Shown here in pieces: positions 5,787-38,361 of a DNA stretch of 64,000 bases. A program made the position numbers and the translations under genes. The notes beneath the pieces were generated by a model, which was not told the DNA's origin, did not search any database, and saw nothing but the letters and a program-made list of their open reading frames with translations. This DNA is from Bugula neritina. Its lineage: Eukaryota; Animalia; Bryozoa. The DNA lies in contig OZ037768.1 of NCBI GenBank assembly GCA_964035545.1, forward strand, positions 16,351,875 to 16,415,874, given 5' to 3'. Position 1 is the stretch's first letter. The number at the start of each line of letters is the position of its first letter.

Positions 5787-6343
5787 TGTAGTAAACTGTG
5801 GGTTCTGAATGCAACTAGTGCCTACATGCTCTAGAAAGAATAAGCCAAGTATTTGAGTACAAATGAGGATAACCTTTATTGTATCAGATACAGCTCATGT
5901 GGTCCTACTACCAGCGAGCTCCAGTAGTAGTCTGAACTACACTGGAACTCGCTGGCTTTTATATACAAGCGAGACAAAGACATTCCTTTGTTGCCGAGAT
6001 CGGGGTTCCGAAATGCCGAATATCGGCATTTCGGGACTCCGAAATGCCGAAACGCCGATTTTCGGCATATCGGCATTTCGGAAGACCGAAATGCCGATCT
6101 CAGCAACAAAGGACACACACAAAAGAAAGCAACATTAGTAAAAGAAATATTACATAACTTCAGAATGCGTATTTCAGTAAAATTACATTATGTTGAGCTT
6201 TAACCGTAATTACCATACTTAGGCATTAGCAAGCTAACTTACTTAACTATAATTACAGAATTAAGAATGATACGCAACAGTATTTATAATATACTGTTGC
6301 ACGCTGTTATTTCGAAACTAAAAGAGGGTGAAAATCCATTACA
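5787..6343 (-). mobile_element. Solo LTR, family 2, copy A
   Basis: TG...CA ends with 4-bp TSD ATAC (5783-5786, 6344-6347); homologous in inverted orientation to 37843-38361; TATATAAAAG on the minus strand near 5956-5965. Confidence 0.85.
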
Positions 6344-8477
6344 ATACTATAAGTACAATATTAGCTGTATAACATTAACCATAAGTGCAAGTTATAAGTA
6401 TTACTATTCGTCTATTACTATTAGTATAACCTATAACTATGTCTATATAAGTATAAGTAAATGTTATTTTAATTAAATTATGTAACTATTCTAATGCTTA
6501 TAGTTATACTGAGTTGATATTCATATTTATTGACTTTGAGGGTGTTACTTATTATTGCTTTTAATCACCAATCCATTGCTAGAACTAACTCGCCCAAGAC
6601 TTAAGGCTAAGGTAACTGTGGAGGTATCGCACTCACAGTCACACTCACTGTGGTTATCAGTATGTGTGTCAATATCAGTATCACTATGACTATAACTATA
6701 AGTTTAACAATATAAGTCCTGAGATGACTAAGAGTAAGTCCAATAGCCTATTAAGTGACCTTGTATGTCGAGAAATGTTACTGTGATACTAATAGTAATA
6801 GTATATGTATTACTGTAATACTAATAGCCTAAGCCTACTACAATACTAATACTGTAATAAACAATAGTAATACCTATAATAATTTATAGTTTTCATTTTG
6901 TTACTAGTGATTTAAGTTATAATAAGATTAAAGAATTAGATTGATAATTTAGATAATTGATATAAATATTAGATCATAATTGTAAGGATATTTGTTAAAA
7001 TACTTACTAAATCTGTGAAACTGAACAGAACTAGGACCCAAACTGTCTTATAATTAAATTTCTTTCTCAATATGATCTTTATCCTTTATACTTTTTGTTT
7101 TGTAACGTTCTCGATACAGTTGACTTTTTATTTATTTATTTTGTTTATAAAATCGTATGCGCCACGCCAATGTTTAGTTCTAGACTTTAGAGAACTACAA
7201 ATTACAGTTAAAGTTGAGAATAGGGCGTTGTTTTAAGTTGCTTGTCTTGAGCAAATGTGTTGCTAAATGTTTATTCCACAAATAGATTTCATCAACAACT
7301 GTAGTTATAAAAATATGCTCACTATTGAGCGTCATATTTCTTTTACATGTGCAGTCCAACAATGTGAAATATGCAAAGCACTTTGCCGAATATCACGGGT
7401 GTAACAGTGGCATACTAGTTCTAAACACTAACTGTGACCCTTGAAATGTCGAATCTACTTGCACACTGGCACACTAATGCCTCAAAAATGAAATTTCATG
7501 AAGTTGCACTAGAAACAAAATTTGCCAGTAATACCGAAATATTTTTGAAGATTTATTTTACATGAACAATGTTGGACATTTTATTTCCTCCATATTCTTT
7601 AGCAAAGATCACAGAAACAAATAGTTTCTTTACAGTAGTAGCTTGAACATATCGTTTCAATTAATGGAGGGGTGCCTAATTTGCTAAAATTGATAAACAA
7701 TGCATAATCATCTCCTTTTTTTTCAGGCGACATGTATGAAATTTACCCAATAGCTTGTTTTTATGCCCCATAGTTTTGTATTTATTCATAATCTGTGGGA
7801 TTTGGTAAACTGATTTTATATAAAGTTTTTGGAATAAATACTTTAGAAAAAGTTGCTTTGCATGGTATAGTTTAAGCACAATGAAATTGGTAGCTTTAGA
7901 GTCAGGAAATTGCAATACTTGGACTGGTTCATATTGTAACTGTAAATGTACTATAATTATATAGCTTGGCTGTCTATAATATGTGTAAGGTGGCAGTGTA
8001 ATTCAATGTTCTATGCAGCACGTAGATCATTACTCAATGAATGGGTATGTGTATAGAAACTTTTCTTTGCAATTCTAAATTGAAGTTATTGGGCACACAG
8101 ATGCTCCATGCTTCATCCAGACACTAGTCGCTGAAGGGTACTGCGTTTTAATTAATACTAGCTTATTGGATATTTTTAAAACTCGCCCACTGCAAAAGTA
8201 AAGCAAATGGCCTGTTTCTGTTTTGTGGCCACTTTTCTTCCAAAATAATTGTTTAGAGGGTTGTATTCCTATTAGTAAAACAATGCTACATATCTATAGG
8301 GTCTTGATAATTAATCTACATGCTCCAGCATATTACTAATTTGTCATTCAATTTGACAGGCGTGTAGACAAATAACATTCTGAAGTTATGTATTTGCTGT
8401 ATTTTTTAGCTTTTACAATCATTACCTATTTCAAGTAGTCTCCAAATCCATATCTGTACCACAGCTGGCTAATCAAA

Positions 8478-16980: not shown

Positions 16981-17435
16981 AGTATATTCAAGTGTGAGTT
17001 TAAAAACAATTGTTAAAATATTTGTTGTAGTGGCGTTGTAATAGTCATTGTTGTACTTGTTGTAGTAGTTGTTGTGGTTGTTGTAGTGGTTTTAGAAAAA
17101 AGCCTATTAGTGAACATAAACTATCTAATGCTTCACATAGTCAAGGTTTTGCTTCTTTGTTTAGCAATACTTAAAACAATCATTGTTGTAGATCTGATAT
17201 CCTGTTTCATACAATTTTGTTACTATCAAATATATTTTCTAACTGAAACAATGCTCTTGAATCTTTTTAGGACATGTTATGTTATACACCTTGCTGTCAA
17301 TGATGGTTATTCCACTGTACTATATACACTAGTAGTAGATGTGTATTGACTATTTTACGACAGGTTCAACATTTTATTGAGATAAATGTAATTATAATAT
17401 CCTTGCATGGATTTCCATTTGTTTCAGTGTCAGTC

Positions 17436-19845
17436 ATGGATACATCCGTCTCGTATAGCAAGTATGGCCAAGGAAAGCAAAGAGTAGAGGAGTCCTCGTC
17501 TTCGTATGACCATGGCTATAATTCACAGAACAGATACTACAGTAACTCTGTCACGTCGGATGCCTTTAGTGATATTAGTTTTGACCCGTACAATAACAAA
17601 ACCCATCTGCCGGCCAACTATGGGTATAGTAACTCTCACTTTGTGCCTGATGGTGGCAGACGCCAAATACTAGATGTTCAACAAATGCCTCTAAATGATG
17701 GAAGGCAGAGAATGAGGGATAACTCTGTAGATTCAGACGCTTATGGTGGCCACAGAGCGCCGAGTATAATCAGCAGTGTTGGTAGAGATGCTGATGTGGA
17801 ATCAATCACTAGTCAGCAAACGTACAGCACCAGCACATCGTTTGCTACTGAAAGTAGTGCGTTTAGTTATGACCAATACAGATATCACGGAGAGCTGTAT
17901 AAGCCCGTTGCAGCTCCTCGAAAAGTAAACTCTCAAGTTAAAAAGCTGTTCGGTGAGATTCACCCTCGGATGTTGAGGCCAGAAGATAAACCAATTGAAG
18001 AGAGTGGAGAAGAAACAGAAGACAGTGTGAGCATTGTGTCTTCGGTTGCTCCTAGGCCTGCGCCAAGGGCTAGTATGAGAATGAGTAGGAGGTCCATTGA
18101 GTTTATGGAGGATGAGGCAATTCGACTTGAAAATTCTCTTCTTAAAAGCATTTTGCGGAGTGCTGTTATGTCCGCAAGACGTGATGCTAAAGGAAACAAA
18201 ATGATAGTTAGATTTGAGCACGTCGATAAATATGCGGATTCTAAGCCACGAAGAGACATCACAGACTATTCGGATATTGACAGCGATCATGGTAAAAACT
18301 CTAAAAAGCACAAAACCAAGCAAAAAGACGTTTGGAGTCATGTTGCACCAGTTGGTCCAAAGCCAGCTAGAAATTCCCGATCAAATTCACACAGATCAAG
18401 CAGCAGACGTTCATCATCTGCTGACAGGTCCCGACAGACGAGTAGATCTGGTAGCAAGAGAAGGTCATCTTCCGCCTCCAGCATTTCAAGGAGATCTCAT
18501 CGATCCTCAGTCAAAACCAATAAACACTCTCAATCTGATTCTAAACCCGGTGTGACTGCCAATGGTGGGGGTGAAGTAGCTATACAAGTAAGTATGTAGT
18601 TCTACTAGCAGGAATAAAATTCTACTCATTCACTCGACTGGAACTGAGTTTAGAGTCTGTTGATAAATAATGATAAATAATCTGTAGGCGAGGTTGTTGC
18701 GGATAATTTACAACTCATCAAACATTCATCACTGAAAATGTTTTATTAAAAGACCATATATAGTGGCAAACCATTGTCACTGGTCGAGGTATAGTAAATA
18801 GAATAGGAAGCAACGATAATTTTGCAAATCTATTCTCAGTCACTAATCACCCTGTATATGGAAACGGATGCATAATGAAGAGCTACAGATTGTTTTAATT
18901 GATAATTACGGCCAAGCATATTATGCAGTTAAATTAACTATTTCATTGATTCTAGATTAGCCCATCTATACTCTCTCCAAGATTTGCTTATAAATACCAT
19001 TACTAAACTGGCAGCAATAATAAACTGTTTTCTTCCCATCCTCAATTTTCTTTATTTGAAATACTTAATAGGTAACAAAGTTACACATAATAATTTTTAT
19101 ACTAAATTTTTGTCTGTTTAAGATGTGGTGTAAACAAGTGTTAAATCTTGAGCACTTTTAAAAATAATAAAAAACTTGCACACATTCCAAAAATGTCATG
19201 CTAGGTGCACGTATATATACATGTATAGACTTTTGATCTATAATTTTTGGTTTAATATTTTTGATTGAAACATTGTTGCTTTATTTGGCAGTCACTCAGC
19301 TTCTCATTTGCCAAGGTTTTACTGAAAATTTTGCTGTTTGAAAAAGTGAAATGTTGAACCTACTTAAAATGGTGATGACGAAGTTTATATGTTTAGATTT
19401 TGAAGTTGTCTTCTAAATGTAGAGTTATTTTGAATTTGGTTAAAAGTTAATAGCTGAAACCACTGAATTAAGGTTATATTTCAATGGCTGAAACACACAG
19501 AGCAAGAAATAGCCATGACCAACACCCATTATATTACAATTCCTCACAGCTGTGGATAATGTTATATGGGATGTTGCATTTTGTACATTGGTATACCATA
19601 TTGCGAGTAGTTTCACTCAAACACGGATTTGACAATAAGCTTCACTTTGTTTTGTTTAGATGCCTGGAGAAGAAGGAAAGAAGCCACAAAGCATGTTTGG
19701 TGACATAAAACAATCAAGCAACAGCAGTGGAGGTATCTGTTCAGACCCCCAGAAGGTGCTGAAGTGGTCACTGATTATAGGCGTTCCCTCTGTATTGCTG
19801 ATTATAGTCATCATTGTAGTTGTTGTTGTTCTTCAATCCAATTAG
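17436..19845 (+). CDS. Uncharacterised, largely disordered S/R-rich protein with a single C-terminal transmembrane helix (about 445 aa)
   Basis: Exon 17436-18587 (CAA|GTAAGT) joined in phase 0 to 19660-19845 (ttag|ATGCCT); ends WSLIIGVPSVLLIIVIIVVVVVLQSN*. Confidence 0.8.
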
Positions 19846-30050: not shown

Positions 30051-30224
30051 CTATGACTATCTGCTATTCGTTCCTATTGTACTAGTACTACTACTACTAC
30101 ACTACTACTATTACTAGTACAATAACAGATAACTTCTACTTTTAGCACTCCTAGTCTACTACTAGTTCAATAACAGATAAGTTCTAGTTCTACTTCTAGC
30201 TCTGCTACTACTAGTGAGTAGTAG

Positions 30225-30529
30225 TGTTATAATTTTCAGATTTAGGGTTGATGTGCTATCCAGAGAGTCTATTTATTTACTATAGAACTGCACCAGGATA
30301 AGTCGAGTGAACGAGTATATTTTACACACAATTATACATTATAAAAACGATACATTATTTCCAAACAAGTTACACATCTAATCTATTTCACACTCTAGCT
30401 TCGACTGAGTTAGCAGCGGGAAACTACAATTGCTGCTAACTATCAACTACGCTAATTGGCTATCCATTGTTCCGGGTCAATTACGTGACCCTACATGTTG
30501 TGCTGCTGGTAGTTCCACGAACCACCACA
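30225..30529 (-). repeat. 3' LTR (305 bp)
   Basis: Identical to 37432-37736; minus strand has CCAAT, an Inr-like TCAGTC and AATAAA. Confidence 0.97.
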
Positions 30530-30819: not shown

Positions 30820-31641
30820 CTAGAGTCCTTGTTGGGCACGCCGGTGTTTGGCTTGGCATGTACGCAGTTTCCGTTTCATACGGCATACGGATCCCTTTAG
30901 CTGGAAGAGTCCTGTGGTAGTGTTAAGTAGATCTGGTGCCAGCTGGGTGAACTCTTCTTGTAATCGTAGGAGGCGTTCTTCTACTGTAGCCAGGCGTACT
31001 GGGTCCGGGGACGGTGTCCGTCTGCGGCGCAAGGGTGGACTGGGGGACCTGGTTCGTCTCTTCGCCGGTGTGGGGGAGATCTCTCCTTCTTCTGGATATG
31101 TAATTTCCTCGGGGGTGTATGTAATTTGAGGACGGTCAGACACCAACGGGGATTGTTGGCGGGCGTTGTCTAACACACGTTGGAACCCCGAGGACAGAAC
31201 GGCTAACAACATGGCCTTCTTCACCAGAGGTCGTATAAGTGTGAGGAACTCCGGGTATAGCTTAGCGTCGACCACGTAGTTTTCTCCAGGGAAACAGCCC
31301 GCCGCTCGGTGTCTGGTGACGGGGTAGGGATACACATCATTGTACCCGCAGGGGCAGAATGTTAGTAGGAGATGAGCATTGACGTGTAGTTTAAGGGAGC
31401 GGTGAGAGGCGCAATCTTCACCACAGATCTGGCATCTCGTTCGTCCTCTGGACCCCCAGGCCGTTTCTATTTCTTCCTCTGTTTGTGGAGACACCCACCG
31501 CCAACGGCGGCGTAGTGGCTCAGGCCGATCACCACTAGCACACTCCTCCGGATACGGAGCGGGAAGTGTTCTATCCCGTACCCTGGTTGTAGCGGGTCGA
31601 GTGTAATCTGAAAAAGTTTCAACAGTGTTAATACAGTACAC
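30820..31641 (-). CDS. Retrotransposon ORF3: C2H2 zinc-finger, Arg/SP-rich, coiled-coil accessory protein (probably spliced; coding exon 31607-30820)
   Basis: 273-codon ORF starting at GTG; CQIC-x12-HVNAH finger followed by CPC...H-x4-C; KRRTRSPSPPLRRRRTPSP; C-terminal heptads; acceptor ttttcag| at 31608. Confidence 0.8.
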   Translation of the reverse strand: MYCINTVETFSDYTRPATTRVRDRTLPAPYPEECASGDRPEPLRRRWRWVSPQTEEEIETAWGSRGRTRCQICGEDCASHRSLKLHVNAHLLLTFCPCGYNDVYPYPVTRHRAAGCFPGENYVVDAKLYPEFLTLIRPLVKKAMLLAVLSSGFQRVLDNARQQSPLVSDRPQITYTPEEITYPEEGEISPTPAKRRTRSPSPPLRRRRTPSPDPVRLATVEERLLRLQEEFTQLAPDLLNTTTGLFQLKGSVCRMKRKLRTCQAKHRRAQQGL

Positions 31642-31921
31642 TGCTGTGTTGTCAGCTTGAACAGCTTGGCAACTCCTAATTCAGTTACCTCGTAGAGATT
31701 AATGGTAGTGAATAGTCAGATAGAACACGTATTGCAATGAGATTATAAAAATCTCTAAGTCAAACTGAGTTCTTACTACGGTATTTCACTAACCTATCTC
31801 CAGCTCGATTGACTCAGTGAGTCAGAGCTGAGCGATGCAATCTAGTTTCGTATTAAGATATAGTTAACTCACCCCACGATCTGTTGTCGTAAGACATACT
31901 GAATGTGTGAAATGGTTTGAA

Positions 31922-32512
31922 CTACTGCTTAGAAACACGTCTACTCCTGACTGCATCAGCGTATGAAAAGATCGAGCAACGTGGTTGGGGTGCGTGATTA
32001 AGACTTTGTGCACCCGGCGGATGAATTTTGTTTCTATTTCCGCCGATACAAAAGTTGATTTTTCCGTGGTGTTGACAACTCCCACATTTGCTCGATTCTT
32101 TTCTCGTACGGTTTTCCCCTAGACTTTCATGTGTGCCGCTTTTAACGCAGTCACATACGAAGTCCTTCAAGTATGCGGGGGGTTGCCTCGTACGCTGTCC
32201 CCTTTCTAGGGGGGGTGACACGCTTGCCGGTTCGTTAGTAGGGGCCTCTAATGGCGTCTCTACTTCACCGTTAGCGGTCACCTCTTCTTGTTCTCCGGAT
32301 GGAGCCCCTCCCTCCGTGGGGGTTTGCACTTCCGGAACCGGCTCGGTTTCTGGAAGTGATGGAATTAGACTTGGCGGTGGCGGACACGCTTCTGTTGACA
32401 AAAGCTGCCGCTCCTCGCTCACCAAGTTTTCTTCCCGCGGTATGATCACTTCGTATTCAGGTCCATGCCGCCGTCGCCCGCGCGTTGTTGTTTGCCTCCT
32501 GGGCTCTAACAA
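31922..32512 (-). CDS. C-terminal tail of Pol/integrase, out of frame at a C12 run
   Basis: Pro/Glu-rich linker then RGQRTRQPPAYLKDFV, a motif typical of Gypsy integrase C-termini; would be in frame with pol if the run were C10 or C13. Confidence 0.7.
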   Translation of the reverse strand: MLEPRRQTTTRGRRRHGPEYEVIIPREENLVSEERQLLSTEACPPPPSLIPSLPETEPVPEVQTPTEGGAPSGEQEEVTANGEVETPLEAPTNEPASVSPPLERGQRTRQPPAYLKDFVCDCVKSGTHESLGENRTRKESSKCGSCQHHGKINFCIGGNRNKIHPPGAQSLNHAPQPRCSIFSYADAVRSRRVSKQ

Positions 32513-35500
32513 CGGGGGGGGGGGGCTTCTCCCACTCCGCCGGGGCTAGCCCAATACGGTTTCAAGCGAGACTCATTCTGGATAGACACCTGTCCTGAGC
32601 GCTCAATCTTGTACGTATGATTGGGCATAGCCTCGACGACCACGTAGGGGCCTACGAACTTAGGCTTCAGCTTATCAGCCTGTCCGCGACGCCTACGGTA
32701 ATTGACCATCCACACCTTATCTCCCGTTTGATAGAGAGGTGGTTCATCGGAATCTTCGTGCCGCACCTTCCACTGCTGTTGACGCAGTATATCGTGTGCG
32801 GCCTTCATCCGTTCCACTAGTTCACTGGCATACTCGTGAACCAAGTTGTCTTGCTCTGGAACGTGGTAGGTGAGATGGTCAGGGACACGAGTCTCTCTCC
32901 CGAGCATCAAGAGGTTTGGGGTCTCACCAGTACTGGTGTGTGGGGTGCTACGGTATGCACGCATGACTTGTGGCAATACCGTATCCCATTCCTCTTGACC
33001 TCGTCCAAGGAGGAGACTCCGGAGTGCATCACCTAGCATCCGGTTGTTGCGCTCCACCACCCCGTTACCTTGAGGGTGGTAGGGGGTGGTCCTGCTCTGA
33101 TTTACTCCCCAGAGGTGGCAAAGGTCGCTCATCAGTTGAGACTGGAATTGAGCGCCTTGATCAGAGTGTATCTGTTCGGGAAGCCCAAAATAACAGAATA
33201 CATGTTGGTCTAGCGCCCTGGCCACTGTTGGGGCTGATGCATCTGGGATAGCCAGAGCATCCGCCCACCTAGTAAAGTGGTCGGTTAGTACTAGGATCCA
33301 ATTATTGCCTCTGGGGGTCAGGGGCATGGGTCCGACCAGGTCTACAGCGACTACTTGCCAGGGCCTACCAGCATATAGCCTCCGCCGTCCTGCCTCACCA
33401 GGGGGGCGGCTATGCTTACTGGCCTGGCAGATCTCACACTGTTTGACTCTGAGCCGGACGTCACGCTCCATCTGCGGCCAATACCACCGGAGTCGTAATT
33501 TGGATATCACTCTCTTAACCCCTGCGTGGGCCTGTTTGTGAGTATCCCAAATCAACTCACGGCGGATGGCTGTGGGGCAGACTACCCTCTTCCTTTCCGA
33601 GTGTCTGCCGCTGGCAGCTAGAGAGATGGTTAGTAACCCATCCTGCCCGATCCGCAGCGAGTCCCAACGCTGACAGTATAGCCGGAACTCGGCGCATCCC
33701 TGTCGTATGCGTTCCTCGCTGGGTCGTCGCCCTTCCCTTTTGGCCCGGTATATGTCTGCCACGACTCCAGGCAGCTCTTCTTGGAGCTTCTTCAGCTCTC
33801 GAACATTACCGGCCAGTACAGGGTTGGCGCGGAGGTTTTGTACATCCTCCGGGGACTCATCAACTCTTTGCCTGAGTTGACCTTGATCCCAGTCAAACGG
33901 TGCTCCGTGATGAGCCAGCGTCTCCAACTCGCATCGCGGGGGACCTCCATCCCTCCTCTCGATGTTGAGACACTGTTTGCAACCTCCGTCAGGTCGGCGA
34001 CTCAACCCATACGCATTGCTGTGTCTCTTGCCCGGTCGATGTTCGATCCGGTATGAGAATTCAGCTAGGATTTCGAGCCACCGGGCGACCTGACTAGAGG
34101 GCTCTGCTCTCCTGCACAACCAGATCAGCGAGGCATGATCCGTACGCAGCCGGAACTTCCTGCCATATAGGTATGGTCTGAAGTGCTTCACTGACTTGAT
34201 TACTGCCAGCAGCTCCTTGCGGGTAGTGCAGTAATTTCGTTCAGCGGGTGAGAGAGACTTGCTGTAGTAGGCTACTACTACCTCTCGGCCTTCCTGCACT
34301 TGTGACAGCACAGCGCCAACATTTTGGTCACTGGCGTCCGTGTCCAGGATGTACTCCAGAGTGGGGTCTGGGTAGGCCAAGATGGGCGCCGTTAGTAGGC
34401 AGCCCTTTAGGCGGTCGAACGCTTCTTGCTCGACTGGAGTCCACTGCCACGTCACTCCCTTTGCGGTGAGCCGGTTTAACGGCTGGGCTATGCCGGCAAA
34501 GTCTGGTATGTATTGCCTGTAATACCCTACCAGCCCCAAGAAAGCCCGGAGTCCGGTCAAGTCTTGGGGGGTGACCCAGTCTTCTACTGCCCGTACCTTT
34601 TCGGGATCCGTTGCCACGCCGTTTCGACCGACAACGTGCCCCAGATACTTGACCTCCGGCTGCAATAGAGCGCACTTGGAAGGTTTGAGCTTAAGACCGG
34701 CACCTCGGAGTCTCTCGAAAACCTCCTGCAGACGACTGATATGTGTCTCGAAGTCTGGAGAGATTACGATGACATCATCGAGGTAGACCAGCAGCGTCTT
34801 CCAATGGAGTCCGCTAAGGACTTGTTCCATCAGCCTCTGGAAGGTGGCTGGGGCGGAGGTTAACCCGAAAGGCAGCACCTTCCACTTCCACAAACCGTCC
34901 CGTGTGATAAACGCCGCTTTCTCTTGGGCGTCGGGACTCAGAGGAACTTGCCAATAGCCGCTTAGCAAGTCTAACGTACTGAAGTACTTGCTGCCGGCTA
35001 GGGCGTCCAATGACTCGTCAATACGAGGTAGAGGGTAGGCGTCCTGTATGGTTACGCTATTGAGTTTGCGATAGTCCACACAGAACCGCCAACTGCCGTC
35101 TTTCTTCCGGACCAGTACGACTGGCGAGCTCCACGCACTATGGGCGGGCTCTATCAGTCCCCGGTCCAGAAGATCCCGTACTTGTCGGCTAACCTCCTTC
35201 TCTTTCTCCGGCCCCAGCCTGCGTGTGGGCTGCCGGACAGGGACTGTCCCTGCAGTCAGCGGTATTTCGTGTCTGACAATTCCAGTCAGTCCCACGTCAT
35301 GCTCTCCGCTGCTGAACACATCACCGTAGTCGCGTAGTAACTTAGCCATAGCTTGGCGTTCTCTGTTACTCGCGCAGCCGCCACTGGCTGTTTCGTATAA
35401 CTCCCGGAGATGTGTTGGGACTGCCCCCCGTCCCTGAATAGGGCACTGAGGGGGTGCCTCCGTCGCATCACCCAGCGACGGGCCTACGTCTCCCTCCTGA

Positions 35501-36558
35501 ACAGAGTGAAAACGGCCCAGCATCGACCCAGCCGGGAGCTTGATAGGCTCGGTAAAGGGGTTGACACACTGCACTAAGATCTCCCCTTGCTCAGTCAGCT
35601 GATTCAGACTGCTGGCAAGTTGGATCTTTTCGTGCGCGCCTTCAACCACCCCGAGTCCAGAGATCCGGCTACTATTCACCCTGCAGTGAATGGTAGCCCG
35701 GGAGCGGCCTGGTATGATACGGTTGCGTACCACTTGCACACCTCCCACTAAAGGGCGGCCGAACTTGTCGACGCAGGCGAGTTCACGCCCGGACATCATC
35801 ATTGCAGATCTGCTAAAATCTATGTGACATCCGTGCCGTTTAAGGAACGGCATCCCGAGGATAGCATCCTCCTTGAGCTGACTGACGATGAACGTCTCTT
35901 GGATCGTTTGATCACGGACTCGTCCCGTCAGCTCAATTATGCCATAGAAGGGAAGGCACGACCCGTCAGCGAGGGTGCCGTATTCCCCTTCGTATGCTTC
36001 CATCTCGCCCCTGACCCTAGTACTGAGGGTGTCGAAGAGTTGGCGGCTTAAGAGGTTTGTGGTACAGCCCGAATCAATGAGGAAAGTAACAGCTTTGCCT
36101 TCCAGTTTACCGGGCAAGAAATAGCTGTTCCCATGGGGCTGCACCTGAACTCTCCCTTCAGGCCTTACTCTCGCAGGGAGTACCTCCCTCGCTTTGAGTC
36201 GCGAAGGAGGTCTCTTAGGGCGGTGGTAGGTAGGCCTCGGGGGTGCCGAGGCTAGATTCTCAGCTACCTTTGTGGGCTCCCATCCAGATTCTTGGACTTG
36301 TAGCCCTGTGAATCTGTTGTGAAGGGGCATAGAAAAGGCAGCTGCGGGGCGAAGCCCCTTGCTGGTCCGTCGTGGCTGTTGCCACTGTTGGTTGCCAGTA
36401 CGCGGTACCCGTCTGGGTGACCTGCGTTTCTTCTTCCCTGGAGGTTTCATCGTCGGCCCGCGGAAGGTGGGAACATCTGCGGGCCGCGGTAGTTTAACCC
36501 CTGATTTAGGAAGGGACAATATCGGCGGAAATGTCCTTGATTTCCGCACTCCCAGCAA
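32506..36558 (-). CDS. pol: Pol polyprotein (aspartic protease, RT, RNase H, integrase)
   Basis: FLIDSGC (protease), LPFGL and YLDD (RT), DTDASD (RNase H), HKQAH..CEIC zinc finger, VAVD/HSDQG/ERNN DDE core, KFVGPY (GPY/F). Confidence 0.97.
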   Translation of the reverse strand: MLGVRKSRTFPPILSLPKSGVKLPRPADVPTFRGPTMKPPGKKKRRSPRRVPRTGNQQWQQPRRTSKGLRPAAAFSMPLHNRFTGLQVQESGWEPTKVAENLASAPPRPTYHRPKRPPSRLKAREVLPARVRPEGRVQVQPHGNSYFLPGKLEGKAVTFLIDSGCTTNLLSRQLFDTLSTRVRGEMEAYEGEYGTLADGSCLPFYGIIELTGRVRDQTIQETFIVSQLKEDAILGMPFLKRHGCHIDFSRSAMMMSGRELACVDKFGRPLVGGVQVVRNRIIPGRSRATIHCRVNSSRISGLGVVEGAHEKIQLASSLNQLTEQGEILVQCVNPFTEPIKLPAGSMLGRFHSVQEGDVGPSLGDATEAPPQCPIQGRGAVPTHLRELYETASGGCASNRERQAMAKLLRDYGDVFSSGEHDVGLTGIVRHEIPLTAGTVPVRQPTRRLGPEKEKEVSRQVRDLLDRGLIEPAHSAWSSPVVLVRKKDGSWRFCVDYRKLNSVTIQDAYPLPRIDESLDALAGSKYFSTLDLLSGYWQVPLSPDAQEKAAFITRDGLWKWKVLPFGLTSAPATFQRLMEQVLSGLHWKTLLVYLDDVIVISPDFETHISRLQEVFERLRGAGLKLKPSKCALLQPEVKYLGHVVGRNGVATDPEKVRAVEDWVTPQDLTGLRAFLGLVGYYRQYIPDFAGIAQPLNRLTAKGVTWQWTPVEQEAFDRLKGCLLTAPILAYPDPTLEYILDTDASDQNVGAVLSQVQEGREVVVAYYSKSLSPAERNYCTTRKELLAVIKSVKHFRPYLYGRKFRLRTDHASLIWLCRRAEPSSQVARWLEILAEFSYRIEHRPGKRHSNAYGLSRRPDGGCKQCLNIERRDGGPPRCELETLAHHGAPFDWDQGQLRQRVDESPEDVQNLRANPVLAGNVRELKKLQEELPGVVADIYRAKREGRRPSEERIRQGCAEFRLYCQRWDSLRIGQDGLLTISLAASGRHSERKRVVCPTAIRRELIWDTHKQAHAGVKRVISKLRLRWYWPQMERDVRLRVKQCEICQASKHSRPPGEAGRRRLYAGRPWQVVAVDLVGPMPLTPRGNNWILVLTDHFTRWADALAIPDASAPTVARALDQHVFCYFGLPEQIHSDQGAQFQSQLMSDLCHLWGVNQSRTTPYHPQGNGVVERNNRMLGDALRSLLLGRGQEEWDTVLPQVMRAYRSTPHTSTGETPNLLMLGRETRVPDHLTYHVPEQDNLVHEYASELVERMKAAHDILRQQQWKVRHEDSDEPPLYQTGDKVWMVNYRRRRGQADKLKPKFVGPYVVVEAMPNHTYKIERSGQVSIQNESRLKPYWASPGGVGEAPPPRC
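36434..36498 (-). promoter_or_regulatory. -1 programmed ribosomal frameshift signal (gag-pol)
   Basis: G_UUA_AAC heptamer (36498-36492) in the gag frame, 5-nt spacer, stem CGGCCCGC/GCGGGCCG; loop UUCCC could pair with downstream GGGAA. Confidence 0.75.
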
Positions 36559-37400
36559 AAACTGACTGTTTCTCCCTGTGGCGGCGCCGATGGCCGCATG
36601 GGCTCAGGGGCGGTACTCACTGGGTTTTGTGGTGTCAGTGTTGCTATCAGCTTGGCTAGCATGTCCGTCAGTTGAGTGACTTTTGATGCCGTCGCCAACT
36701 GGGACACGGCAGCCGCGGCGGGGGTTTCCTCCCCTTGTCCCGCGGCCGTGTCTGCGCGGTCTATCTCCACTTGGCGGGAGCTTCCGCGACTTTTATGCAT
36801 TTGATTAGCTAGGAGGTAAGCTTCCCCCTCAGTCAGAGCATCTTCAACGGTGGTGACTCCCCTAGCTAGAAACTGGTGGTGGAGACCCAGATCGTCGACA
36901 GATGCTATGAAAGCCTCGAGGGTGTACCTCTCGCGGTTGACTGGGGGCAAGTCGCTGTACGCGATCTGTGCCAGCTTCATGACCGCGGCGGCATGCTCCC
37001 GCAGCGGGGTGCGGGGATCACGCCGCAACCTCTGCAATCGGGCCCTGGCATCTGTAGCAGAGAGGCCAAAGCGGGCCCGCAGAGAAGCAAAGATATTATC
37101 AATGTCTACACCCAGCCCATAGGGCTTGGCTTTGTCCATCAATGCCATTCTAAGCTTCAGCAAGGCCACCCTAGGGGGCCACTGAGCGACGTCCATTACG
37201 TCGCTAAACTCTTGGATAAATTGTTCCACCTCCTCTTCACCCGTGAAGGTGGGCGCCTTTAACCTGTAGCGGTCCTCAGCTAGTTCTCGCGGAACCCTTC
37301 GCTCTTCTACTACATGGTTAACAGGCATTGTCTCTACAGCATTGTCTCTACGCTCACCTTCAATTGCCGGTGGTTGAGTTCCAGCATTTTCAGTCTCCAT
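36447..37400 (-). CDS. gag: Gag (capsid plus CCHC nucleocapsid knuckle), 317 aa
   Basis: LKAPTFTGEEEVEQFIQEF capsid-type start; CWECGNQGHFRRYC zinc knuckle; overlaps pol, which is in the -1 frame. Confidence 0.93.
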   Translation of the reverse strand: METENAGTQPPAIEGERRDNAVETMPVNHVVEERRVPRELAEDRYRLKAPTFTGEEEVEQFIQEFSDVMDVAQWPPRVALLKLRMALMDKAKPYGLGVDIDNIFASLRARFGLSATDARARLQRLRRDPRTPLREHAAAVMKLAQIAYSDLPPVNRERYTLEAFIASVDDLGLHHQFLARGVTTVEDALTEGEAYLLANQMHKSRGSSRQVEIDRADTAAGQGEETPAAAAVSQLATASKVTQLTDMLAKLIATLTPQNPVSTAPEPMRPSAPPQGETVSFCWECGNQGHFRRYCPFLNQGLNYRGPQMFPPSAGRR

Positions 37401-37412
37401 CTTGGATGCACT

Positions 37413-37430
37413 ATCCCACTGCTGCCACCA
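37413..37430 (-). other. Primer-binding site complementary to the tRNA-Leu 3' end
   Basis: TGGTGGCAGCAGTGGGAT, 1 nt after the 5' LTR; its complement ATCCCAC(T)GCTGCCA-CCA matches the metazoan tRNA-Leu(AAG/TAG) 3' end as I recall it. Confidence 0.85.
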
Positions 37431-37431
37431 C

Positions 37432-37736
37432 TGTTATAATTTTCAGATTTAGGGTTGATGTGCTATCCAGAGAGTCTATTTATTTACTATAGAACTGCAC
37501 CAGGATAAGTCGAGTGAACGAGTATATTTTACACACAATTATACATTATAAAAACGATACATTATTTCCAAACAAGTTACACATCTAATCTATTTCACAC
37601 TCTAGCTTCGACTGAGTTAGCAGCGGGAAACTACAATTGCTGCTAACTATCAACTACGCTAATTGGCTATCCATTGTTCCGGGTCAATTACGTGACCCTA
37701 CATGTTGTGCTGCTGGTAGTTCCACGAACCACCACA
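37432..37736 (-). repeat. 5' LTR (305 bp)
   Basis: Identical to 30225-30529 and followed by the PBS. Confidence 0.97.
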
Positions 37737-37842
37737 GTAGTACCTGTACTACTACTACGTCTACTACTACTAGGTCTAGTAGTAGTACTACTAATACTAC
37801 TACTAGTACTACTACTACTAGTACTACTACTACTAGTACTAC

Positions 37843-38361
37843 TGTAATGGATTTTTACCCTCTATTAGTTGCGAATTAACAGCGTGCAACAGTATATTAT
37901 AAATACTGTTGCGTATCGTTATTAACTCTGTAATTATAGTTAAGTAAGCTAGCTTGCTAATGCCTAAGTATGGTAATTACTGTTGAAGCTTTCAACATAA
38001 TGTAATGTTATTGAAATACGCATTCTGAAGTTATGTAATATTTCTTGTACTAATGTTGCGTATCAATTTTTATGCTGTAATTGTGTAGTAGATTTTTGCA
38101 TGTACTTGTTTCCGGTTGCGAGATCGGCATTTCGGGCCTCCGATCTCGGCAACAATGAAAAAGCACTGTATCTTGTTGTATATAAAAGCCAGCGAGCTCC
38201 AGTGTAGTTCAGTCTACTACTGGAGCTCACTGGCAGAGGACCTTCACTATTATATATAATTCAACTAAATAAAAATTTCTTCAACTATACAATACATCTT
38301 GTTCTCTCTAACAAAGAGTATGTTCAGGCACTAGTTCTATTCAACCCACAAAAATATCACA
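37843..38361 (+). mobile_element. Solo LTR, family 2, copy B
   Basis: TGTAATGG...ATATCACA with 4-bp TSD CTAC (37839-37842, 38362-38365); TATATAAAAG near 38179, TCAGTC at 38209, AATAAA near 38268; homologous to 5787-6343. Confidence 0.87.

Follow-up and report, generated by a model that had tools for sequence, protein, structure and literature searches.

A Gypsy LTR retrotransposon of 7.5 kb, found on the minus strand in AT-rich surroundings of the 64-kb window (the whole stretch of DNA that was analysed), carries between pol and the 3' LTR (30225-30529), i.e. in the env position, a third open reading frame (ORF3) that is under purifying selection and encodes a protein modelled as a double zinc-finger domain and one long helix. 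The original prediction of a non-env accessory gene of the zinc-finger and coiled-coil type was borne out by a pN/pS of about 0.1 among related copies, by the existence of a protein family and by the structural model. Its claim of a new system was overstated, because accessory genes that are spliced and are not env have already been published for animal Ty3/Gypsy elements, CERV being the case (PMC10309623). What looks new is the ORF3 protein family and its fusion to Pol. We propose, tentatively, that the product regulates the element from within the nucleus, most likely by binding DNA and activating or protecting the element's transcription.

The element and its third open reading frame

The element was bounded by two LTRs of 305 bp (TG...CA; 5' LTR at 37432..37736 and 3' LTR at 30225..30529, both on the minus strand), which were identical over their 305 bp and were flanked by a 4 bp target duplication, GTAG (30221-30224 and 37737-37740), so that the insertion is recent. 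A primer-binding site, which we take to be tRNA-Leu-like, lay directly after the 5' LTR (37415..37431, minus strand), and a purine-rich tract lay just before the 3' LTR. The gag gene (36447..37400, minus strand, ATG at 37400) encoded one CCHC knuckle with a weak Pfam match (zf-CCHC, E 0.15), and pol (32506..36603, minus strand) encoded protease, RT, RNase H, integrase and SH3 domains according to Pfam, with the order protease-RT-RNase H-integrase typical of Gypsy. The LTRs, primer site, purine tract, target duplication and pol order together place the element in Ty3/Gypsy.

The pol frame was interrupted near its 3' end at a run of G (near 32515-32525, within 32506-32545) despite the identical LTRs. 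The length of this run varied among copies in the public run X2, so the break may have arisen recently by mutation or may be an artefact of assembly. Past the break, in a different frame, the pol tail (31922..32545, minus strand) was Pro/Glu-rich, bore a ...PPAYLKDFVC motif and weakly matched the Pol tails of two of the sequences described below (P0177 and P0201).

The element was embedded in a (TAG/CTA)-rich simple repeat (30100-30224 and 37737-37850), which represents a single site. Another repeat was present as inverted copies (5908-6355 and 37831-38236), 91-96% alike in three pieces, one just past the 5' LTR and the other 32 kb distant. A Ser/Arg-rich open frame of 431 codons (17304-18599, plus strand) was probably a host exon.

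The ORF3 frame was free of stops from 31680 to 30820 on the minus strand (286 codons), in the same sense as gag and pol. The position and strand of the 273-codon ORF that had been predicted were right, but its first codon, the GTG at 31641, is not a start codon. The first in-frame ATG (Met157, at 31212) was located past both zinc fingers. The coding exon (30820..31607, minus strand) comprised 261 complete codons and a stop, and a frame of at least 261 codons was obtained in 0/2000 composition-matched random sequences of the 1392-nt region (median 98, maximum 239); the ORF3 frame is real and far longer than expected by chance.

Selection was evaluated from the differences among related copies in contigs of run X2, which is not a phylogenetic dN/dS. 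For ORF3, 40 of the 46 differences were listed, and two found only in the RNA run were set aside, leaving 38. Of these, 30 were silent and 29 were at third positions, against an expected fraction of 0.26-0.31, giving a pN/pS of 0.09-0.12, well below 1 (p < 1e-8 versus neutral). The same 38 differences read in the two shifted frames included 5 and 2 silent changes, respectively, and the single indel among the listed differences fell just beyond the ORF3 stop, with none within ORF3. In pol, 18 of 27 listed differences were silent (pN/pS 0.2, with 40 of 241 listed). Purifying selection on ORF3 is thus as strong as on pol.

The nucleotide sequence around ORF3 suggests that its product is likely to be made from a spliced mRNA. 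All the splice-site ranks were obtained with a home-made score. A predicted acceptor (TTTTTCAG/AT, 31608..31627, minus strand, phase 1) ranked first among the 33 AG sites that lie between pol and the domain and fifth of 576 in the whole element. The two top donors of 442 GT sites matched this acceptor in phase (phase 1). The first, AAG/GTGAGC (37352..37360, minus strand), was located 43 nt past the gag ATG, and the second, GGG/GTGAGT (at 31872), 25 nt past a local ATG, closed a predicted mini-exon (31873..31897, minus strand) containing the ATG at 31897 and 8 codons. A motif compatible with this mini-exon seems, from the protein letters, to be read through in one relative (P0019). A second good acceptor was found at 31899, 2 nt before the local ATG, so that a three-exon mRNA with a 26-nt middle exon may also be possible.

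Conservation among the ORF3 relatives started at F-S-D-Y, which is the acceptor at 31608 read as protein, and F-S-D-Y was present near the start in 16 of 57 close relatives (17 matches, one of them internal and false). Upstream of the acceptor, relatives had L-H-C-W where the window had stop-H-C-stop in a shifted frame, and P0069 read the acceptor as F-Q-I-T-L, the same as the other frame of the window. Judged from these protein letters, the DNA seems to be conserved without a frame before the acceptor, which would fit an intron end. Most of the close relatives had a Met about 19 residues past F-S-D-Y and may therefore be able to do without the gag start. The RNA run X1 (share 0.18), too sparse to reveal expression or splicing, yielded 21 short contigs, one of them on ORF3, with no splice joint among them.

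The ORF3 protein and its family

All the motifs quoted in the original prediction were found in the ORF3 protein: the C2H2 finger, the CxC...H-x4-C module, RRRWRW, the KRRTRSPSP tract and the heptad helix. The model of full ORF3 consisted of one double-finger domain (31165..31527, minus strand) and one long helix. Over its 110 residues the domain was modelled with a pLDDT of 93.6 and a pTM of 0.85, the two fingers being wrapped by a Trp-capped N-helix and by a C-terminal strand and helices. Finger 1 (31372-31434, minus strand; C-x2-C-x12-H-x3-H, with C83, C86, H99 and H103) showed the classical C2H2 pattern and the beta-beta-alpha fold, although in Pfam the C2H2 matches of the window copy stayed under the curated cut-off; of 46 family members, 12 had a C2H2_4 match at E <= 0.05. 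Finger 2 (31294-31356, minus strand) was of C2HC type (C-x-C-x12-H-x4-C, with C109, C111, H124 and C129). Five residues separated H103 from C109, a TGEKP-type linker being absent.

In fold searches of the PDB and of viral structures, nothing matched at E <= 0.001. At the head of the structural and profile matches, all of them weak, were tandem C2H2 fingers, mostly DNA-bound, which covered part of the domain; the best Foldseek match was weak and to a generic C2H2 finger (E 0.46), and the best VIA-align result for the domain had Z 3.9 and rmsd 3.5 with 58 aligned residues, while full ORF3 aligned through long helices only. In the ESM Atlas, the best feature score (0.89, a lead only) pointed to C2H2-type or unnamed clusters. 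The structural comparison proposed at the outset thus delivered a confidently modelled domain but nothing beyond generic C2H2 likeness: a known fold for the whole domain was not found by these searches, which does not by itself prove a new fold. The best weak structural matches included the tandem C2H2 proteins Kaiso, SALL4 and HIC2, which share the pattern of finger 1. They differ from ORF3 in its second finger (CxC-x12-H-x3-5-C) and in its lack of the TGEKP-type linker, and no tandem C2H2 match spanned the whole 110-residue domain into which the ORF3 pair is wrapped.

Among 1791 candidates, 57 close relatives were identified (44-98% identity), none of them named and none with a Pfam domain, and a profile search extended the family to 119 cluster representatives. 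The family has no Pfam model. Its distant members shared about 110 residues with W-x-S/T-x2-T, C-x2-C-x11-12-H-x3-H and F-C-x-C-G, followed by a His 12 residues on, a Cys usually 3-5 residues further, V-D and an aromatic helix. Six metal ligands were invariant in 46/46 aligned members, the His of finger 2 was located 12 residues past CxC in 97 of 108, and at least two R/K occurred within the seven residues before the first His in 81 of 97. In RRRWRW, the conserved residue was the last Trp.

The Leu-rich C-terminal coiled coil was confirmed as a heptad helix (30856..30993, minus strand, residues 230-275) with a basic cluster at its end. Of 27 distant members, 15 had a coiled coil lying 31-67 residues from the C-terminus, against 0.95 in shuffled sequences, and at least five R/K within 12 residues were found near the C-terminal end in 46 of 57 close relatives. 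The two-copy complex prediction of the ORF3 protein scored 0.15. The SP-rich, NLS-like tract KRRTRSPSP was present (31006..31062, minus strand, residues 207-225) but subfamily-specific, as it matched in 2 of 57 close relatives, with a third, degenerate version in P0003. A Rev/Rex-like argument built on this SP/RS tract is weak because the tract is not conserved in the family.

That ORF3 is a degenerate env or a chance frame is highly improbable. It does sit in the env position and probably has an env-like splice from within gag, as documented for env of the idefix subclade (PMC12992720). However, no signal peptide was seen by inspection and no clear membrane anchor was found, as originally predicted: the best 19-residue hydropathy mean was 1.51, inside the folded domain, and the C-terminus was basic. 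A mean of 1.6 was reached in 6 of 57 close relatives. There was one N-x-S/T site, and Pfam scans of ORF3 and its family detected no env family. The zinc-finger model and the random-length test effectively refute both readings. Env-F of insect errantiviruses is likewise encoded by a third ORF downstream of pol and made from a subgenomic RNA that is spliced, as predicted for ORF3, but it is described with a signal peptide, furin site, fusion peptide and membrane anchor (PMC12992720, PMC13524379), in place of which ORF3 has a zinc-finger fold with no clear anchor.

The domain in other elements and in bryozoan proteins

The domain followed pol in three other lineages, in one of them fused in frame to Pol; homologues came after pol wherever the context was visible, which it was for a minority of the 119 representatives. 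P0078 carried in frame, some 80 residues ahead of its first finger, a motif like the pol tail of the window (14/25 identical). The metagenome locus L020 opened with a pol-tail-like peptide and a stop (motif-level likeness), with a diverged, broken copy of the gene downstream. In two of 4 long matches among 7996 scored candidates, pol domains and the double finger belonged to one polypeptide, with RT, RNase H and integrase in P0176 and integrase in P0177, and the fusion was retained in cluster mates of 2193-2276 aa (P0198, P0201 and P0204). The domain was thus in frame at the C-terminus of Pol in P0176, P0198, P0201 and P0204, and after integrase in P0177 and P0210. About 560 disordered residues separated the integrase tail from the domain in the Pol-fused forms, which shared with the window element 54% identity in pol over 1367 columns and 25% in the ORF3 part over 196 columns. 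A further protein, P0193 (1226 aa), had a protease region joined straight and in frame to an acidic region and the double finger, without RT and integrase; it is possibly a deleted, non-autonomous derivative keeping the accessory module.

Of 30 clusters that were looked up, 3 bore a species name and all 3 were bryozoan, two from Watersipora subatra and one from Bugula neritina. XP_067940964 of W. subatra contained two domains, whereas XP_067944745 of W. subatra and KAF6040922 of B. neritina had a common N-terminal block (P0123 versus P0214, 27% over 291 columns) and may be host genes. Three proteins, P0073, P0170 and P0118, each had the double-finger domain duplicated in tandem, the first two being annotated isoforms in W. 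subatra. In a domain tree of 64 sequences (FastTree, midpoint root) with weak deep support, the bryozoan entries were not grouped together, and the tree gave no direction of transfer.

Metagenome and viral contigs were scanned with protein seeds, which detected no locus. A DNA pattern for the metal ligands matched once in viral and 23 times in metagenome sequence, and among the metagenome loci L020 alone scored over the whole domain (E 5e-19). The viral match (L001) was off-frame in a phage-like gene and was rejected, L009 and L022 scored on the pattern alone and were treated as chance, and tblastn gave no pol or gag match at the 24 pattern loci.

Possible roles and significance of ORF3

The putative metal-binding domain with its basic helix, the basic clusters and the terminal coiled coil suggest a nuclear regulator that binds nucleic acid. 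In the role that we tentatively favour, the acceptor at 31608 would be linked in a subgenomic mRNA to either the gag start or the mini-exon with the local ATG, and the encoded protein would have 270-276 residues. The double finger would use its basic helix to bind nucleic acid, nuclear import would depend on the basic clusters, the C-terminal helix would let copies of the protein associate and, in the longer family members, acidic-hydrophobic stretches upstream of the fingers may recruit co-activators. The product would bind the element's own DNA and switch on or protect its transcription. Where it is fused to Pol, the module would accompany integrase and so exert its effect on the new copy. 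Tax and Tas play such a part as LTR transactivators.

The activator is supported by the polarity of the distant members, which resembles that of transcription factors: 17 of 35 had an acidic-hydrophobic 30-mer on the upstream side of the fingers, against 2 of 36 with one on the downstream side, and the upstream side was the more acidic in 20 paired cases (p = 0.0005, a value that ignores kinship). An acidic-hydrophobic region beside a DNA-binding domain is a heuristic sign of a transcription factor. The weak fold matches, mostly to DNA-bound fingers, agree with such a role. However, the acidic stretch was mostly absent in the window's own subfamily (5 of 57 close relatives), the C2H2 matches were generic and weak (Foldseek E 0.46 or worse), and C2H2 fingers bind RNA and protein as well. 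The predicted splice layout, moreover, is that of CERV, an RNA-export factor.

Since the close family mostly lacks the acidic stretch and the splice layout is CERV-like, an RNA exporter stays a close rival, which we regard as possible. A spliced product of CERV or Rev type would bind unspliced element RNA, multimerise and license its export or stability; splicing would first yield the regulator and full-length RNA would escape later. The top donor would let ORF3 share the gag ATG, as cerv shares the gag start, and strong splice sites oblige an element to bring its unspliced RNA out of the nucleus (PMC10309623). The conserved Arg-rich end and the Leu-rich helix would suit this role, and S/T-P pairs in the close family were twice as frequent as after shuffling (117 versus 62), CERV requiring proline-directed phosphorylation; in the distant members this excess was absent (56 versus 54). 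Several windows in the 3' part of pol folded better than shuffles (z -3.3 to -5.3, from a scan of 62 windows of 120 nt with only 20 shuffles per window), including 33176-33057 (-5.3), 32456-32337 (-4.0) and 32216-32097 (-4.0) on the minus strand, a candidate cis-acting RNA element with no Rfam match. Against an exporter, no fold is shared with CERV as it is described, with its H, M and G domains and its C4 loop (PMC10309623), and the Pol-fused form comes from unspliced RNA, whose export it could not license unless it is spliced too.

The Pol fusion keeps alive a third role, which we consider rather unlikely, in which the double finger would read a feature of chromatin or DNA and guide integrase, acting in cis in the Pol-fused forms and in trans as a protein of its own. 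The fused domain, at the Pol C-terminus or after integrase, stands where chromoviruses carry a chromodomain, and the window copy was inserted in a (TAG/CTA)-rich simple repeat; but one insertion site shows no preference, the long disordered stretch separates the domain from the integrase tail, and P0193 keeps the module in frame without RT or integrase.

Somewhat less likely still is that ORF3 was captured from the host, either as cargo or to act, by anti-silencing or host manipulation, on genes of the host instead of on element sequence. The annotated bryozoan proteins and the N-terminal block common to P0123 and P0214, as expected of orthologous host genes, would agree with this. However, selection inside the element equals that on pol, the bryozoan entries are scattered in the weakly supported tree, and the element-borne forms are deeply diverged, so that capture was not recent.

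No description of the ORF3 family was found in the literature, Repbase, GyDB, subscription papers and supplements being outside the scope of the search, and the accessible text of PMC13524379, PMC8556966, PMC13269885 and PMC2774666 held no account of it; a Repbase entry may already note ORF3. The nearest known system is CERV of Cer1, a Ty3/Gypsy element of C. elegans whose unspliced RNA requires CERV for its export; this protein of 517 aa is encoded by 5 exons, has an H-M-G layout with a possible C4 finger and was reported without homologues outside nematodes (PMC10309623). Both are accessory proteins of animal Gypsy elements with a spliced mRNA from the gag start (predicted for ORF3), a Cys-rich metal site, a leucine-repeat helix and a basic signal; as far as CERV's published description goes, ORF3 is set apart by its size of about 275 aa, its C2H2 and C2HC fingers and its Pol-fused forms. 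The sORF1 and sORF2 of the Drosophila MDG1 group are also non-env accessory ORFs under purifying selection, and sORF1 is nuclear, but they lie upstream of gag, are unspliced, have 70-110 aa with a helix-turn-helix or membrane helix, and no zinc finger is reported in the accessible text (PMC11952523). Capture of extra ORFs downstream of pol, replacing env, is known, and the accessory ORFs of planarian Burro alternate between a free ORF and a polyprotein subdomain, as in the free and fused arrangements of ORF3; the accessible part of the review names other domains for these and no double zinc-finger/coiled-coil family (PMC6431247).

Few accessory regulators of animal LTR retrotransposons have been characterised, CERV being the tested spliced example that we found. 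ORF3 represents a second, unrelated-looking accessory family, and its compact, confidently modelled domain makes self-activation or nuclear exit of unspliced RNA testable with one small protein. It is possible, as a more speculative proposal, that an old clade of animal Gypsy elements consists of 'complex' retrotransposons with their own transcription factor built on a wrapped double finger not described before, a module that would switch between a spliced gene in the env slot and the C-terminus of Pol and would have been domesticated by bryozoans more than once. The free, Pol-fused and host-gene states of the domain form a natural series for the movement of a module between element and host.
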